From a virus (taxonomy: Duplodnaviria > Caudoviricetes): 33,767 nt of DNA. A model generated the notes under the pieces. That model was not told the DNA's origin. It was given only the letters and a program-made list of their open reading frames with translations, and did not search any database. Every line of letters starts with the position of its first letter. Position 1 is the first letter of the stretch. Position numbers and translations under genes: made by a program. This document shows positions 124 through 33,767 of this stretch, piece after piece. The DNA is taken from positions 1-33,767 of IMG/VR virus record IMGVR_UViG_3300017766_001539; one strand, 5' to 3'.

Positions 124-344
124 GGAATGATTTTCAAATAGAATGGGCTAAAAAAATAAATGGTGATTTAGAAAAGAATAACCAAGTAAAAAAAGAGATT
201 GTTCAAAATAGCAATACGTTTAATGAATTTAAAAAGTTGTTTTTACAAGATAGAGAATTAAACAAATCTATTGTAGCAACAAAATTAAATGTTTCAAGAG
301 TAACAATTTATAGTTGGATTAATAAAATAGAAAACGAATTATGA
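3..344 (+). CDS. 3' part of T5orf172/GIY-YIG-like nuclease with C-terminal HTH (starts at 33473, 171 aa across the join)
   Basis: Open frame ESIIHLKYNHLRLEGEWFEIT...LNKSIVATKLNVSRVTIYSWINKIENEL*; stop overlaps primase start (ATGA 341-344). Missing from the ORF track because it spans the join. Confidence 0.88.
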   Translation, partial: ESIIHLKYNHLRLEGEWFEITEEQAIKEIDFYSKLEDIKARNDFQIEWAKKINGDLEKNNQVKKEIVQNSNTFNEFKKLFLQDRELNKSIVATKLNVSRVTIYSWINKIENEL

Positions 345-2548
345 TTACAAAAGACTATTTAAAGAAACTTTCATCAATTGGATATAGCATTATCCCATGT
401 GACGATGAAAAAGTTCCAATAGGTAAATGGAAGAAATACCAAACAGACAAACGTTCAAGTGATGAAATAGAATTATTAAACTGCACTAAATACGGACTTG
501 TAACAGGATTTAATGATTTGGAGGTTATAGACATTGACCTTAAAGTTTTAAGTACTGTAAGCGAGAAAAAAGAGTGGTGGGATGAATACCTTGCTTTTCT
601 TTGTGATAACATTGTTGACTTCATGGATAAGGTTGTAATATCCAAAACTCAAAAAGGTGGGTATCACATTATGTACAAGTCCAAAACTATTGTTGGAAAT
701 ACAAAGATAGCAAAGCTTGAAGGTATGACAGAGGCAATAATTGAAACAAGGGGTACAGGTGGATTTGTAATTATTTATGATAACTTTCTAACTAAAAATG
801 AATACCATCAAATTGATTATATTACAGAAGAAGAAAGAAATATAATTTGGTCAATTTCAAAAACTTATGATTATAAGAACCCTATTACTGCTGAAGTTAA
901 GCTTACAAATGAATATGTAGGTAGTGATGTGACACCATGGGAGGATTATAATAATAAGCATAGCTGTGTTGACTTAATAGGTTCAGACTTTACCATAGTT
1001 AAAAACACTTCTAAAAGCTACGTTATAAAAAGACATGGCGCAGAAAGTCAACACTCTGGTTATATTTTTAAAGATAGTGGTTGTATGTTCTTGTTTTCAA
1101 CGGGTACAATATACCCGAATGAAACACTACTAAACCCATTCACAATGTATGCTCATAAAAATCATATGGGTGATTTTAACAGAGCAGCTAAAGAACTATA
1201 CAAAGATGGTTATGGTACAAGGCAAATAAAAAAAATTGAGATAACTAAAAATGAACCTATAATTAGGTCAAGTTTTCCAATTGAAATATTTCCCTTAGAA
1301 ATTCAACACTTTATTACTGAAAGTTCAAATACGTTAGGTTTATCAACTGATTATATGGGATGTTCATTTATGTGGATGTTATCATTAATTGTTGGAAATA
1401 CTATGGTTATGGAAGTAAAGTCAGGATGGCGTGAAGTAGCTACATTATGGATTGCTTTGGTTGGTAAACCTGGGATTGGTAAAACGCCTTCCATTAATCA
1501 AATGATTTCACCTTTAAGGTCTTTAAATGCAAAAGAACAAAAGGAATATCAAAGACAATACCAAAAATGGATGGAGTATGAAGCGAAGGATAAAAAGGAA
1601 AAGGAACGAAGCGAAGAAATAAGAAAACCTAAAAACAAACAATTTATTGTAAATGATATTACTATTGAAGCTTTAGTTGATTTGCATGAAGAAAACCCAA
1701 ATGCAGTAGGTATATTTAAAGACGAATTAGCAGGATGGTTTAAAGACATGAATAAATACAGAGCTGGATCAGATTTAGAGTTTTGGTTATCTTCATGGAG
1801 TGGTTCACCTATTTCATTAAACAGAAAGACAGCAAAAAACGCCTTTGTAGATAAACCATTTATTCCTGTTATTGGAGGTATACAACCAAGTATTTTTGAG
1901 GAGTATAGTAATGGAGCAAATAAGGATAATGGATTTGTAGATAGGATTCTTATTAGTTACCCTGATTTAAAAGTTAACAAGTACAATAATAATTATATAA
2001 GTGCTGAAGCTTTGCTTTGGTTTAATGATTTTGTAGTTAACATGAAGAGTGTAATTAATTCAAAGTTTTTAAATTTTGATGAAAACGATGAAATTGTACC
2101 TTTAATTGTAAAGTTTAATGAAGAAAGCGGAAAAGAATGGGTAAGAATACATGATAAAATTACTAATATTCAAAACTCAGATGATGAAAATGAGTACATG
2201 AAAAGTATGTTACCAAAACAAAAATCTTATATTCCGCGCTTTGCACTATTATTAAATACCTTATGGAGCTTTATAGATGAAAAATACCCTTATCAACAAG
2301 TCCAAAAAGATTCTATTTTAAGAGCTGAAAAACTATCAGAGTATTTTGTGAATATGGCTAAATTAGTTAAGCAAGATGCACGAGAGAAAACAGATTTAAA
2401 AAATGTCTCTAAGGATAAAATGAGCAGTTTTGATAAATTTAAAGCAATGTATGAAGCTGATAAAGATTTGAATAAAAGCGTTGTTGCTGAAATGCTAGAC
2501 GTATCAAGAAGAACTGTTTATGATTGGGTTAAAAAATTAGATAAATGA
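341..2548 (+). CDS. Primase-polymerase fused to DUF3987-like P-loop helicase domain, C-terminal HTH
   Basis: N-terminal prim-pol motifs (GLVTG, VIDID, GGYH, ETRGTGG); Walker A GKPGIGKT, Walker B FKDEL, IGGIQP, GFVDR. Confidence 0.88.
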   Translation: MITKDYLKKLSSIGYSIIPCDDEKVPIGKWKKYQTDKRSSDEIELLNCTKYGLVTGFNDLEVIDIDLKVLSTVSEKKEWWDEYLAFLCDNIVDFMDKVVISKTQKGGYHIMYKSKTIVGNTKIAKLEGMTEAIIETRGTGGFVIIYDNFLTKNEYHQIDYITEEERNIIWSISKTYDYKNPITAEVKLTNEYVGSDVTPWEDYNNKHSCVDLIGSDFTIVKNTSKSYVIKRHGAESQHSGYIFKDSGCMFLFSTGTIYPNETLLNPFTMYAHKNHMGDFNRAAKELYKDGYGTRQIKKIEITKNEPIIRSSFPIEIFPLEIQHFITESSNTLGLSTDYMGCSFMWMLSLIVGNTMVMEVKSGWREVATLWIALVGKPGIGKTPSINQMISPLRSLNAKEQKEYQRQYQKWMEYEAKDKKEKERSEEIRKPKNKQFIVNDITIEALVDLHEENPNAVGIFKDELAGWFKDMNKYRAGSDLEFWLSSWSGSPISLNRKTAKNAFVDKPFIPVIGGIQPSIFEEYSNGANKDNGFVDRILISYPDLKVNKYNNNYISAEALLWFNDFVVNMKSVINSKFLNFDENDEIVPLIVKFNEESGKEWVRIHDKITNIQNSDDENEYMKSMLPKQKSYIPRFALLLNTLWSFIDEKYPYQQVQKDSILRAEKLSEYFVNMAKLVKQDAREKTDLKNVSKDKMSSFDKFKAMYEADKDLNKSVVAEMLDVSRRTVYDWVKKLDK

Positions 2549-9496: not shown

Positions 9497-9979
9497 ATGA
9501 ATCTAACAGAAATAGCACAGCACCACGATGAATGGGTGCGAATAGTTAAGCGGTTCGGAGCAAAGACCGAAGCGGAAGACATTGTACAAGACATGTACAT
9601 TCGTTTTCATAAGTACGGCAAAGGGCAGGTGATCACCAAATCATTCATTTGGATAATGCTGCGTAACATATTCTTTGACTACTGCAAGCGTGAAATATCA
9701 ATGGTTGACATCGACCTTATGGTTGACCTCTCCGAAGACGAAAACAACAAAACATACGAAATAGAGTTATATTATCAAAGCGTCGAAGAACAAATAAAAA
9801 CATGGGAGTGGTTCGACCAACAATTATTTTTATTATATTTGCGTAGCGGTAAAAGTATGCGTGAACTTGAGAAGGAAACTAAAATTAGTTTGACCTCTAT
9901 TTTTCACACAATAAAAAAATGTAAAAGAAAACTTAAAATATGGCAAAAAGAGTATCAAAGGGATTTGGCGATACAGTAG
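9497..9979 (+). CDS. ECF-like (sigma-70 family) RNA polymerase sigma factor
   Basis: Region 2 AEDIVQDMYIRF...FIWIMLRNIFFD; region 4 HTH KSMRELEKETKISLTSIFHTIKKCKRKLK. Confidence 0.85.
   Translation: MNLTEIAQHHDEWVRIVKRFGAKTEAEDIVQDMYIRFHKYGKGQVITKSFIWIMLRNIFFDYCKREISMVDIDLMVDLSEDENNKTYEIELYYQSVEEQIKTWEWFDQQLFLLYLRSGKSMRELEKETKISLTSIFHTIKKCKRKLKIWQKEYQRDLAIQ
9744..9770 (+). promoter_or_regulatory. Putative phage late promoter RCAACA-N15-AGTTA (inside sigma gene)
   Basis: CAACA 9745-9749, AGTTA 9765-9769. Confidence 0.65.
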
Positions 9980-10702: not shown

Positions 10703-11882
10703 AGCCTTTGCAAACGATAGTAGATATTTCATTATTACAGGTGGTAGGGGTAGTGGTAAGTCATATTCTATTAATTTACTATTACTACTCCTTACATACG
10801 AAACCAACCATGTTATCTTATTTACAAGGTACACTCTTACTTCTGCTCACGTCTCTATTATACCTGAATTTATTGATAAGATTGATATATTAGATAAACA
10901 TAAAGATTTTCATATTACCAAAGATGAAATAATCAATCTAAGGACGGGAAGTAAGATATTATTCAAAGGAATTAAAACATCGAGCGGAACACAAACAGCT
11001 AACTTAAAATCTTTGGCTGGTGTTACTACATGGGTTCTTGATGAAGCGGAAGAGTTGACCGATGAAGATACATTCGATAAGATTGATTACTCTATAAGAC
11101 ATAAAGAGAAACAAAACAGGGTAATACTTATACTTAACCCTGCCACGAAAGAGCATTTCATTTATCAGAAGTTCTTTGAGAGTAGAGGTGTTGAGGCTGG
11201 AGTCAATACAATTAAAGGCGATACAACTTATATTCACACAACCTACCAAGATAATATATCAAACCTTTCAGAAAGCTTCTTAAATCAAATAAAAACGATA
11301 AAAGAACGACGTCCCGATAAGTATAAACATACTATACTTGGTGGATGGTTAGACAAAGCTGAAGGTGTTATCTTTACCAATTGGAGGATTGGACCATATA
11401 ACAAAGATAATGGTAGTGTATTCGGTCAAGATTACGGGTTTAGTACAGACCCATCAACATTGGTAGAAACGTCGATTGATAAGACAAACAAAATAATTTA
11501 TGTTAGACTTCATATTTATCAAACAGGGTTGACTACATCGCAATTAGCACAACTAAATAGGCAATTTGCAGGTCGTGACTTAATAGTTGCGGATAATGCA
11601 GAACCACGTTTGATCAACGAATTAAAGGCGCAAGGTTTAAATATTGTACCAACAATCAAAGGAGCTGACTCAGTAAAATATGGGATAAGTTTATTACAAG
11701 ACTATGACTTAATTATTGACGATAATTCCGTAGATTTGATAAAAGAATTAAATAACTATTGCTGGTTAGAAAAGAAGTCAGAAACTCCGATTGATAAGTT
11801 CAATCATGGATTAGATGCTTTACGCTATGCAGTTAGTTATCAGTTAGCAAACCCAAACAAAGGAAAATATGGAATCAGGTAA
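10677..11882 (+). CDS. terL: Terminase large subunit, PBSX-like
   Basis: GGRGSGKS, LDEAEE, LNP, nuclease motifs GQDYG, ADNAEP, NHGLDALRY. Confidence 0.96.
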   Translation: MVVLNPKYKAFANDSRYFIITGGRGSGKSYSINLLLLLLTYETNHVILFTRYTLTSAHVSIIPEFIDKIDILDKHKDFHITKDEIINLRTGSKILFKGIKTSSGTQTANLKSLAGVTTWVLDEAEELTDEDTFDKIDYSIRHKEKQNRVILILNPATKEHFIYQKFFESRGVEAGVNTIKGDTTYIHTTYQDNISNLSESFLNQIKTIKERRPDKYKHTILGGWLDKAEGVIFTNWRIGPYNKDNGSVFGQDYGFSTDPSTLVETSIDKTNKIIYVRLHIYQTGLTTSQLAQLNRQFAGRDLIVADNAEPRLINELKAQGLNIVPTIKGADSVKYGISLLQDYDLIIDDNSVDLIKELNNYCWLEKKSETPIDKFNHGLDALRYAVSYQLANPNKGKYGIR

Positions 11883-31800: not shown

Positions 31801-32849
31801 ATTATAATTGGAAATTAAGTGAAGCAACATTCACAAAAGACAAAGGAAAAGTATTTAGTTGCTTTGCTTGTGGTGGAGGGTCTACAATGGGGTACAAGTT
31901 AGCCGGATTTGATGTCATAGGACACAATGACATTGACCCTAAAATGGTAGAAGTTTACAAAGAAAACCATAAGCCAAAATACAGCTATTTAGAAAGTATT
32001 ACAACCTTTGCAAAACGTAAAGATTTACCACAAGAACTTTATAACTTAGATATATTAGACGGTTCGCCTCCTTGTAGCTCATTTAGTATGGCTGGCAATA
32101 GAGAAAAAGACTGGGGGAAAGAAAAGAAGTTTCGTGAAGGTCAGGAATTACAAGTTTTAGATACGTTATTTTTTGACTTTATAGATTTAGCAAATGAATT
32201 AAAACCGAAAGTTGTTGTAGCTGAAAATGTAAAAGGGTTATTATTAGGTGAAGCTAAGCAATATGTAATTAAGATTTACAAAGCATTTGATGAAGCCGGT
32301 TATACTTGTCAACACTTTCTATTAAACGCATCTAAAATGGGTGTGCCACAACGTAGAGAAAGAGTGTTCTTTATCGCTTTACGTAAAGATTTAGCACCGA
32401 AATTTATGGAGTATGTAGATATGTTTACTGAACTTCCAAAACTTGAACTAGAGTTTAATGAAAAGGAAATACCATTTAAAGAGATTGAAAGACCTAATAC
32501 AATACAAGAAAATAAAACTCATATTCCAAAAGGGATATTGCCGTATTGGAAAAAAATAGATGAAGGTAGGAGTTGTGCCGATGTTCATGAAAAAGGTCAT
32601 TTTTTTCAAGAATTAAAATTGGACCGTAATAGAAGTTTACCAACATTAAGAGCCGGTTCAAATTCATATTATCACTATGAGGAGGAGCGGAGATTGTACG
32701 ACATAGAAATAATATTAGGTGGGAGCTATCCAACAGATTATAATTTTCTAAATTTAAAACCTATATATTTAATTGGTATGTCAGTCCCCCCACTAATGAC
32801 AGGCAAAATAGCAGAACAGATTCACAAACAATGGCTATCTAAATTATGA
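31797..32849 (+). CDS. DNA cytosine-5 methyltransferase (orphan)
   Basis: FACGGG, GSPPC, ENVKG, QRRERVF, GMSVPP motifs. Confidence 0.93.
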   Translation: MNYNWKLSEATFTKDKGKVFSCFACGGGSTMGYKLAGFDVIGHNDIDPKMVEVYKENHKPKYSYLESITTFAKRKDLPQELYNLDILDGSPPCSSFSMAGNREKDWGKEKKFREGQELQVLDTLFFDFIDLANELKPKVVVAENVKGLLLGEAKQYVIKIYKAFDEAGYTCQHFLLNASKMGVPQRRERVFFIALRKDLAPKFMEYVDMFTELPKLELEFNEKEIPFKEIERPNTIQENKTHIPKGILPYWKKIDEGRSCADVHEKGHFFQELKLDRNRSLPTLRAGSNSYYHYEEERRLYDIEIILGGSYPTDYNFLNLKPIYLIGMSVPPLMTGKIAEQIHKQWLSKL

Positions 32850-33097
32850 AAAAACTAATAATTGCAGCAGCATTGCTAATGGTAGGATGCCAAAAAGAAG
32901 AAGTGAAAACGTGCGATTGCCTTCGCATAACGGACATTAAACATGATTCGTTGGTATTTTACGAGAACACCGTATACACAGCAGAAATAACAACTATAAG
33001 CGATTGTACGTTTCTGCAAACAAAAAAAATGTTTCATAGTGAAATAGAACCCTATAAACAAAACAAAGTCGGTGAATGCTGGCAACCTCCTTTCTAA
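32846..33097 (+). CDS. Lipoprotein
   Basis: MKKLIIAAALLMVG-C lipobox followed by QKEE. Confidence 0.85.
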   Translation: MKKLIIAAALLMVGCQKEEVKTCDCLRITDIKHDSLVFYENTVYTAEITTISDCTFLQTKKMFHSEIEPYKQNKVGECWQPPF

Positions 33098-33102
33098 ACA
33101 CC

Positions 33103-33131
33103 AAGCCCAATCTTAACGGTTGGGTTTTTTT
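33103..33131 (+). terminator. Intrinsic terminator
   Basis: aagcccaatc-ttaac-ggttgggttt plus T run. Confidence 0.85.
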
Positions 33132-33295
33132 GTGTGTAAAGTGTGTGTGTGTAAAATTAACTTTACACCCAAAATAAAAAAATAAAAAATAAAAAAAAAT
33201 AATAAATCAAAAATTGCACACTTCACACTTTACACCTGCAAACCCTTATAAACATTGAAAAGTTGCTGTGAAGTTACTTCACACTACTTCACACT
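33132..33295. repeat. Iteron-like CTTYACAC array around an A-tract (probable replication origin)
   Basis: Forward copies at 33161, 33221, 33228, 33277, 33287; reverse copies at 33134 (exact), 33149 and 33266 (one mismatch); A-rich core 33171-33213. Confidence 0.7.
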
Positions 33296-33374: not shown

Positions 33375-33382
33375 TAAATTTG
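33375..33382 (+). promoter_or_regulatory. -7 element TAAATTTG of the replication operon promoter
   Basis: TAnnTTTG match just upstream of the structured leader; no clear -33 TTG. Confidence 0.6.
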
Positions 33383-33387
33383 TACTC

Positions 33388-33467
33388 GTAGAGTGGAAGC
33401 TACAGTAAGAAATTTTTTAAACTCCTCGAGTTGACGTGACTTCCACCACTGATACTCGAGGTTTTTT
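33388..33467 (+). ncRNA. Candidate cis-regulatory leader: two hairpins with complementary loops, second one terminator-like
   Basis: GTAG-AGTGGAAG-CTAC; CCTCGAGT...GTG-ACTTCCAC-CAC...ACTCGAGG then T6; GTGGAAG pairs with CTTCCAC. Confidence 0.7.
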
Positions 33468-33472
33468 ATTTT

Positions 33473-33767
33473 ATGGAAAAAGAAAAAGGTTGTGTTTACT
33501 TTTTTAGACACATTGGTTTAACACCAATTAAAATTGGTTTTTCAAAGAACCCATCTCCTCTTGACAGATTTAATCAATTTAAAACTTATGCTCCTTTTGG
33601 TTCTGAAATAGTTGGCTTTATACAGGTTGAAAACCCAAAGGAATTGGAGTCTATAATTCATTTAAAGTACAACCACTTAAGACTTGAGGGTGAGTGGTTT
33701 GAAATTACAGAAGAACAAGCTATTAAAGAAATTGATTTTTATTCTAAATTAGAGGATATTAAAGCAA
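33473..33767 (+). CDS. 5' part of T5orf172/GIY-YIG-like nuclease (continues through the join to 344)
   Basis: MEKEKGCVYFF...IKIGFS...DRFNQF...LESIIH...GEWF motifs. Confidence 0.88.
   Translation, partial: MEKEKGCVYFFRHIGLTPIKIGFSKNPSPLDRFNQFKTYAPFGSEIVGFIQVENPKELESIIHLKYNHLRLEGEWFEITEEQAIKEIDFYSKLEDIKA
33645..33767. repeat. Terminal direct repeat, copy 2
   Basis: Identical to 1-123. Confidence 0.97.

Follow-up and report, generated by a model that had tools for sequence, protein, structure and literature searches.

A conserved kissing-loop RNA leader with a terminator-like hairpin ahead of replication and DNA-cutting genes in Bacteroidota phages

Described systems and their relation to the leader

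In the rep RNAs of IncI-alpha and IncB plasmids (ColIb-P9 repZ), a target loop is used either by a cis partner, in a pseudoknot, or by the small Inc RNA. Among phages, P4 CI acts through seqA and seqC to terminate replication-gene transcription, and the read-through RNA of Gifsy-1 IsrK is activated by the short IsrK RNA itself, which has been called a structural homologue of P4 SeqA (passages of PMC4825925). The second hairpin of the c4-a1b1 motif is given as a 4-bp stem with a K-U-N-R-N-N-R loop (pages of the PMC2864571 supplement), and in T-even phages RNA hairpins lie just ahead of the starts of the homing endonuclease genes I-TevI/II/III, segB, mobE and seg43(25) (excerpts of PMC2988022).

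Here we describe an RNA leader from the 33,767-nt genome of a tailed phage (Caudoviricetes; IMG/VR record IMGVR_UViG_3300017766_001539), referred to in full as the window, in which a promoter box (TAnnTTTG) precedes, in this order, a hairpin of 4 bp, an A/U linker of 20 nt and a second hairpin that resembles a terminator, and the two loops are complementary to each other (Table 1). A looser detector gave 137 distinct leaders of this kind with 51 address strings on several scaffolds, a few of them probably false and 63 of them bearing the two addresses used as search words. At the gathering score of Rfam 15 neither the window nor nine related loci had a match, those of the window at E<=10 being due to chance, which agrees with the initial annotation in assigning the element to no named family. 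A literature search, mostly without subscription papers, found neither a published description of the leader nor a terminator tuned by a loop-loop contact with both arms free. Six motif strings were absent from six supplementary files of PMC10690425, and the leader may be among the unnamed IMG/VR candidates of that work.

The resemblance to P4 CI and P1 C4 RNA, initially proposed as conceptual, proved closer than that on the target side. Hairpin 1 and the c4-a1b1 target hairpin share a 4-bp stem, a loop of 8-9 nt, a position near the leader 5' end and identical loop words, the 7-mer of the window occurring in 3 of the 80 published c4-a1b1 rows and its commonest sister 7-mer in 1 (counted by eye in pages of the PMC2864571 supplement). 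Among the 74 leaders without the two searched addresses, the c4 loop pattern was found in loop 1 in 37, in loop 2 only in 5 and in neither in 32. Rows NC_001609 and NC_005856 are presumably P4 and P1, respectively. Like the C4/CI systems, the leader would control replication and antirepressor genes. However, the cloverleaf, a second site and a downstream target are missing: C4 is a cloverleaf with two recognition elements, whereas the leader consists of two simple hairpins with one 7-bp match and no further paired couplings, measures about 80 nt in all and belongs to Bacteroidota phages, several of them without a visible integrase. In excerpts of its description the C4 antisense RNA (RF01695) holds the word complementary to the hairpin-1 loop, with a fixed A, in its multiloop junction, whereas in the leader this word lies at the tip of the terminator-like hairpin. 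The Rfam C4 covariance model matched neither the window nor nine related loci, no second (a-type) site was found as an upstream target, and a second downstream target of the a2b2/seqC type was likewise not found, the address recurring within 300 nt in 4.5% of cognate and 7.6% of swapped cases (44 leaders). These comparisons suggest at most a cut-down relative of C4/CI-type control and no member of C4.

A possible full-size relative within the Bacteroidota is the Pedo-repair RNA (RF01715) of Pedobacter, which shares the promoter box followed by a 5' hairpin, and a loop word similar to its own is found in the related locus L004. By our own reading, its loop covaries with a downstream loop in six published rows, and these rows hold two covarying complementary site pairs and two promoter-like boxes that are undrawn in the published structure (pages of the PMC2864571 supplement); to this extent Pedo-repair looks like a c4-type system in Pedobacter. 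It differs from the leader of about 80 nt in its multi-stem fold, its length of about 210 nt, its two matching sites and an additional promoter-like box inside the RNA, and its covariance model had no match in the window genome. The Inc RNA of IncI-alpha/IncB plasmids is a true countertranscript with long complementarity and translational control, whereas antisense promoters were not enriched at the leader (6 of 44 leaders against 6 of 44 in a control window, and none on the minus strand of 33400-33767). IsrK likewise comprises a short terminated and a read-through RNA from one promoter, before an antirepressor-like gene, but differs in a pairing of about 30 nt, translational activation via a uORF and no kiss to a terminator tip (passages of PMC4825925). 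The T-even hairpins, in the excerpts of PMC2988022, are single, bypassed by late promoters and free of loop-loop pairing, whereas the promoter of the leader lies upstream of the whole fold.

Anatomy of the leader and its genomic setting

The window is the whole virus record, complete and circular with direct terminal repeats, its first and last 123 nt being identical. The phage is of Bacteroidota type, and its promoter type and relatives point to a host in the same phylum. It encodes a terminase, portal, ThyX, ERF and C5 methylase; a scan of 40 window proteins revealed neither an integrase nor a repressor. The leader is flanked by a repeat-rich gap on one side and by the T5orf172-HTH gene, of 171 aa, on the other.

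Table 1. Coordinates of the leader and neighbouring features in the window
Feature	Position	Strand	Basis or remark
Terminator-like hairpin ending the upstream methylase unit	33103..33127	+	
Short direct and inverted repeats with A/T-rich core; likely origin of replication	33131..33295	.	Repeat families D1, D3, D4, I7-I9; just upstream of promoter
Bacteroidota sigma-A -7 box TAnnTTTG, TAAATTTG	33375..33382	+	Sequence; predicted transcription start ~33387
Hairpin 1: 4-bp stem 33388-33391/33400-33403, 8-nt loop 33392-33399	33388..33403	+	At predicted 5' end
Loop-1 address, 7 nt, window-subfamily pattern G-U-N-G-N-N-G	33393..33399	+	
Linker rich in A/U; predicted to be a single-stranded tether, with a possible site of nuclease cutting	33404..33423	+	
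Hairpin 2, terminator-like: 8-bp lower stem 33424-33431/33454-33461, 4x4 internal loop (possible tandem G.A), 3-bp top stem 33436-33438/33447-33449	33424..33461	+	
Loop 2, last 7 nt complementary to loop 1	33439..33446	+	
U-tract T6 (33462-33467)-A-T4, 11 nt before ATG at 33473	33462..33472	+	Sequence
First gene: T5orf172/MUG113 nuclease-like domain and C-terminal HTH, 171 aa	33473..33767, wrapping the 123-nt terminal repeat to 344	+	Pfam MUG113 1.4e-13
Prim-Pol/DUF3987 primase-helicase, then SF2 helicase and VRR-NUC-like nuclease	341..2548	+	Likely operon behind the leader

The positions initially assigned to both hairpins, the T6 run and the ATG are correct on the sequence, as are the seven perfect loop-loop pairs, all of them Watson-Crick (33393-33399 with 33440-33446). 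Hairpin 1 is marginally stable alone, at a mean of -0.6 kcal/mol over 44 relatives, and its loop is one that we take to be a U-turn. The linker is 86% A/U over the 137 leaders, and the measured spacer is 19-21 nt in 36 of the 44 window-type leaders; nucleases prefer A/U linkers of this kind. Hairpin 2 folds at -15.4 kcal/mol (z -4.0) with a top that is marginal alone, and the folding of the whole leader is unremarkable (z -1.55). The hallmark of an intrinsic terminator is present, with a G/C-closed stem and a U-tract directly after it; a simple terminator scanner missed hairpin 2, its limits being loops of 3-8 nt and no internal loop. A covariance model built from the leader finds one copy in the window genome. 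By itself the promoter octamer shows no enrichment in the window; a canonical -33 box upstream of the box of the leader was not observed, and the loop address starts most often 9-11 nt past the box (100 of 137 leaders). In a flavobacterium the TAnnTTTG box lies at -12 to -5 of mapped starts (passages of PMC9723704), which would place hairpin 1 at the 5' end of the RNA and give the short RNA a length of about 80 nt.

This placement of hairpin 1 at the predicted 5' end, together with an ATG about 11 nt from the stem base, the commonest U-tract-to-ATG distance (37 of 137 leaders), is what a role in mRNA stability or translation only would draw on, with 5' protection, start-codon masking and the U-run serving as an unstructured initiation region. 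We regard that explanation as very improbable, given that the G/C-closed stem and direct U-run are kept also where the ATG is 16-40 nt away.

The leader had initially been placed ahead of the replication operon, and a primase-helicase does follow, its start overlapping the end of the preceding gene at 344; the gene that opens at 33473, however, is the T5orf172/MUG113 nuclease-HTH gene. The HTH of its product is 45% identical over 40 aa to the C-terminus of the primase (window 150-341 versus 2321-2545). A variant promoter-like octamer lies within this first gene at about window position 215 and possibly supplies the primase separately, as a second promoter. The primase of the window had no relative in the GTDB genome set and only partial relatives in cultured phages (24-31% identity). 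In its three closest relatives, which are 98, 91 and 84% identical, the leader layout is kept with wholly different loop letters. In the closest, L001, homology to the window ends at the promoter end (33383) and picks up again at the primase start, which indicates that the leader and first genes form a swapped module.

Several further observations concern this neighbourhood. Regions homologous to the 33131-33295 repeat gap are present in L001-L003, and the putative-origin repeats co-vary with the C-terminal HTH of the primase (2490-2545) across these loci: the L001 primase, 98% identical overall, differs in the last HTH helix and L001 differs in the repeat word, and L002 has the HTH helix of the window and similar repeats. 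Given its primase-like HTH, the T5orf172 protein may also bind the origin repeats adjoining its own promoter. A small lipoprotein-like ORF (32846-33097) weakly matches the PHROG Cor superinfection exclusion family (8.4e-05), with similar small ORFs directly behind the leader in L003, L012 and L400, and a weak sigma-70 region 2 match at 9497-9979 marks a possible phage transcription factor for late genes.

Comparative support for the loop pairing and distribution of the family

The decisive support for the proposed loop pairing is comparative; within the window genome, a 7-bp partner for loop 2 is found in only 0.65% of 28-nt windows. Two tests were made without selection on loop letters. In the first, covering the window and 80 primase loci, 45 of 1052 promoter octamers came with a terminator (40 distinct), and in 19 of these 40 the 5' part matched the terminator tip over 7 bp or more, against 27 of 1560 swapped pairs. 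The second scanned for the promoter and hairpin-2 scaffold with the loop left as N8 and gave 97 distinct matches: the loop match was perfect in 39 of the 41 with a U-tract, the remaining two being one with a G.U and one that looks like chance, and partners swapped with another address matched in 1.1% of 1430. A further 10 loop matches failed the strict U-tract rule, and 46 had neither feature.

The nature of the pairing is resolved further by a 48-row alignment, the rows of which were chosen for their loop match, so that their 100% loop pairing is no test. Positions 1, 2, 4 and 7 of the loop-1 address are fixed and positions 3, 5 and 6 vary, matched every time in loop 2; both partners of these three variable pairs have changed in 76 cells, and the pairs rank within the top five column couplings. 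All helices covaried (0/500 shuffles; slid controls 37-50% paired), with two-sided changes at all 4 pairs of the hairpin-1 stem, which is 98.4% paired in the 48 sequences, and at 7 of 8 lower and 1 of 3 top pairs of hairpin 2, the internal-loop letters of which were in the search pattern, so that their invariance is not independent evidence. The lower stem contains 43 G.U against 1 A.C, and the folded molecule is thus the plus-strand RNA, whereas the loop helix is almost without G.U (1 of 40 real cases versus 43 of 352 lower-stem cells). A duplex extended beyond the loops is rejected, the positions flanking the loop helix being unpaired in 47 of the 48 rows on each side; pairing ends at the loop edges, as expected for a contact between the tips of two closed hairpins. 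No coupling linked the 5' part to either terminator arm, and a mutually exclusive antiterminator or RBS-opening helix, as in countertranscript-controlled plasmid leaders (IncI, pT181), was not found.

Covariation between the loops of homologous leaders, on which the initial proposal of a kissing-loop leader fused to a terminator hinged, is therefore present on both sides of the variable pairs, and the fused architecture is conserved. Chance complementarity or a DNA-level inverted repeat, to which the modest folding score of the whole leader might point, is next to impossible: it is refuted by the address-blind scan and by two-sided stem and loop changes over many letters, the excess of G.U over A.C runs against it, and both real exceptions to the loop match are G.U wobbles. 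Two further ideas were rejected. Addresses change no faster than the fastest stem pairs, an apparent excess of address change in one analysis having resulted from the use of stem columns in the distance, and a scaling of linker length with hairpin 2 is unsupported (rho -0.33, confounded by subfamily). Together these comparisons indicate a real, widespread and uncatalogued RNA leader, with which many phages of Flavobacterium-like bacteria appear to start replication and DNA-cutting genes.

The gene following the 46 window-type leaders is an HNH/NUMOD/GIY-YIG nuclease in 26, a replication gene in 13, a KilA-N gene in 1, an AntA-KilAC antirepressor in 1 (L386) and a gene without Pfam match in 5; other scaffolds add primases, initiators and many small genes of unknown type (65 of 124 proteins scanned). 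The link first drawn to primase operons holds in so far as primases stand behind some leaders, but it is not specific, about as many leaders preceding homing endonucleases. As to the riboswitch-like element entertained at first, a metabolite-sensing riboswitch is unlikely and was set aside in view of the 51 address strings, the several unrelated scaffolds and the nuclease and replication genes concerned; loop letters turn over freely and no fixed pocket is common to the subfamilies. A geometry that stays constant while the letters vary, and downstream products that bind nucleic acid, would also suit a kissed fold bound by shape, either autogenously by the product of the first gene, as for T4 gene 32 (a precedent cited in the part of PMC10690425 available), or by a host RNA-binding protein. 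Such an operator is improbable, since one scaffold heads unrelated proteins (HNH, GIY-YIG, SF2 helicase, primases and KilA-N).

Cultured phages also carry the leader, namely mumin9-1, tooticki6-1, lillamy9-1, elemoF_6-3D and Cellulophaga phi19:3, and it precedes the replication unit in 5 of 5 checked, these having been picked via related replication proteins. Mumin and tooticki, with listed hosts Flavobacterium sp. LMO9 and LMO6, have near-identical replication leaders with a compensated two-letter address change ahead of different replication modules. In each of the two, an HNH gene is preceded by a further leader, of the window type; at the corresponding position lillamy has neither the gene nor the leader. 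The leaders of vB_FspS_mumin9-1 lie at 11666 and 12701 of MN812224. A DNA search of the cultured phages with the leader gave short A/T-rich matches only. Two extra scans seeded on homing endonucleases gave 5 window-type matches in 99 new loci, a covariance-model scan of 151 genomes of one genus (29 candidates scored per genome) found the leader in 1, the anchor itself, and most of 42 pattern matches in genome contigs failed the leader detector. Where leaders are co-resident, cross-pairing or a shared address was seen in 0 of 27 (P 0.04, from a null inflated by anchor selection), and same-subfamily pairs shared an address in 0 of 11 against 1.44 expected (P 0.21), so that orthogonality of co-resident addresses, the sole hint of the action in trans and superinfection control initially proposed, is not significant and suggestive only. 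The loop pattern is inverted, with the C-rich loop first, in 5 of 137 leaders. Inverted-loop leaders were noted in L501:5886-6000, L067, L281, L304 and L313, phi19:3 included. ORFs of 19-23 codons that are icd/kil- or orf45-like were seen between terminator and next gene in L001:3600-3670 and in L381, about 25 nt past the U-tract. On the minus strand of L204:2729-4072, in a Flavobacterium MAG, a leader immediately precedes an ORF that was judged integrase-like by inspection and lies at the margin of phage genes.

Possible mechanisms and biological meaning

The reading that we favour, tentatively and at somewhat under an even chance, is that the leader is a transcription attenuator with burst-then-off feedback from its own short RNA. 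Host RNA polymerase would start at hairpin 1, and loop 2 would emerge about 15 nt before the lower stem can close, so that the loop-loop helix would form first; hairpin 1 would thus pair with the terminator tip during transcription and the first transcripts would read through, the kiss being the ON state. Terminated RNAs of about 80 nt would accumulate, a cut in the A/U linker would remove their hairpin 1, and the freed terminator hairpin could then bind hairpin 1 of new transcripts with the same address, block cis pairing and favour termination. The predicted outcome is that primase, helicase or nuclease is made in an early burst and then shut off, in a one-site, cut-down form of P4 CI/P1 C4 control.

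Nested nascent folds are consistent with this order of events, the loop-loop helix leading at 33446-33457 and the terminator only at 33461 (the kiss itself is not drawable by the program). Read-through must occur because the primase ATG lies 12-21 nt past the U-tract in several relatives. The kiss as the ON state with subsequent shut-off is favoured by the likeness to c4-a1b1, by the precedent of the IncI plasmids and by the leaders ahead of integrase-like and antirepressor genes; burst-then-off fits the antirepressor of L386 and the integrase-like ORF of L204, whereas accumulation-then-on does not. Loop covariation, 0/27 cross-pairing and the mumin/tooticki address change may also be counted for the attenuator. 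Against it, the loop pairing uses neither arm of the lower stem, so that it is no classical antiterminator, and its geometry allows a fully closed terminator; the scans described above found no second site, downstream target or antisense promoter enrichment, addresses turn over no faster than stem pairs, and orthogonality is weak. Furthermore, a terminated RNA that stays uncut would be inert through self-pairing, the octamer at about 215 could feed the primase separately, and the inverted leaders also count against it.

A purely cis-acting dampener is a tentative possibility that comes close behind the attenuator and is nearly as likely. Here the kiss would lock the weak top of hairpin 2, raising termination and start-codon masking, and expression would depend on a fixed level of leakage, on polymerase speed or Mg2+, or on an antiterminator protein of the phage, with address variety as neutral drift. 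Pairing that ends at the loop edges and covariation of both stems agree with an end state of closed terminator plus kiss; hairpin 1 and the hairpin-2 top are marginal alone, linker length is narrow, address turnover does not exceed stem turnover, and an uncut short RNA would be self-locked. In addition, the 26 of 46 downstream genes that are homing-endonuclease-like recall T-even phages, which restrain such genes with hairpins (excerpts of PMC2988022). A dampener does not account, however, for the resemblance of hairpin 1 to the c4-a1b1 target, for a loop helix almost free of G.U or for the 0/27 cross-pairing, and essential primase genes stand directly behind the leader.

The reverse logic, in which the cis-paired state is OFF and the genes are switched ON once short RNA has built up and binds new transcripts, has a precedent in IsrK, a short RNA activating its own read-through RNA (passages of PMC4825925). 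It is quite improbable for the leader: IsrK pairs over about 30 nt against 7 here, and build-up under a host-type promoter would be expected to activate integrase or antirepressor in a resting prophage (L204, L386).

Returning to the attenuator, we consider it unlikely, though conceivable, that the leader serves Bacteroidota phages and their mobile nuclease cassettes as a minimal RNA lock with a three-letter variable address, being both timer and kin recognition, in which every operon would be shut by the RNA that it releases itself, co-resident cassettes would stay independent and a co-infecting phage would be silenced only if it shares the address.

In general, the leader is likely an RNA gate limiting how much of the replication and DNA-cutting genes is made. 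The family is common, is absent from Rfam and heads the replication unit in each of the five cultured Bacteroidota phages checked; because cultured phages carry it, experiments on the leader are already feasible. It is a candidate means by which these phages set the timing and dose of their primase, helicase, initiator and homing endonuclease genes, which are under host-type promoters, and it connects the P1/P4 immunity RNAs, known for a long time, with a far smaller design from a different phylum. If the leaders are address-specific, they would provide a ready set of orthogonal RNA regulators for Bacteroidota, and if the kin-recognition reading is true, they would represent RNA-only self/non-self control in lytic phages and the smallest relative of C4/CI immunity.
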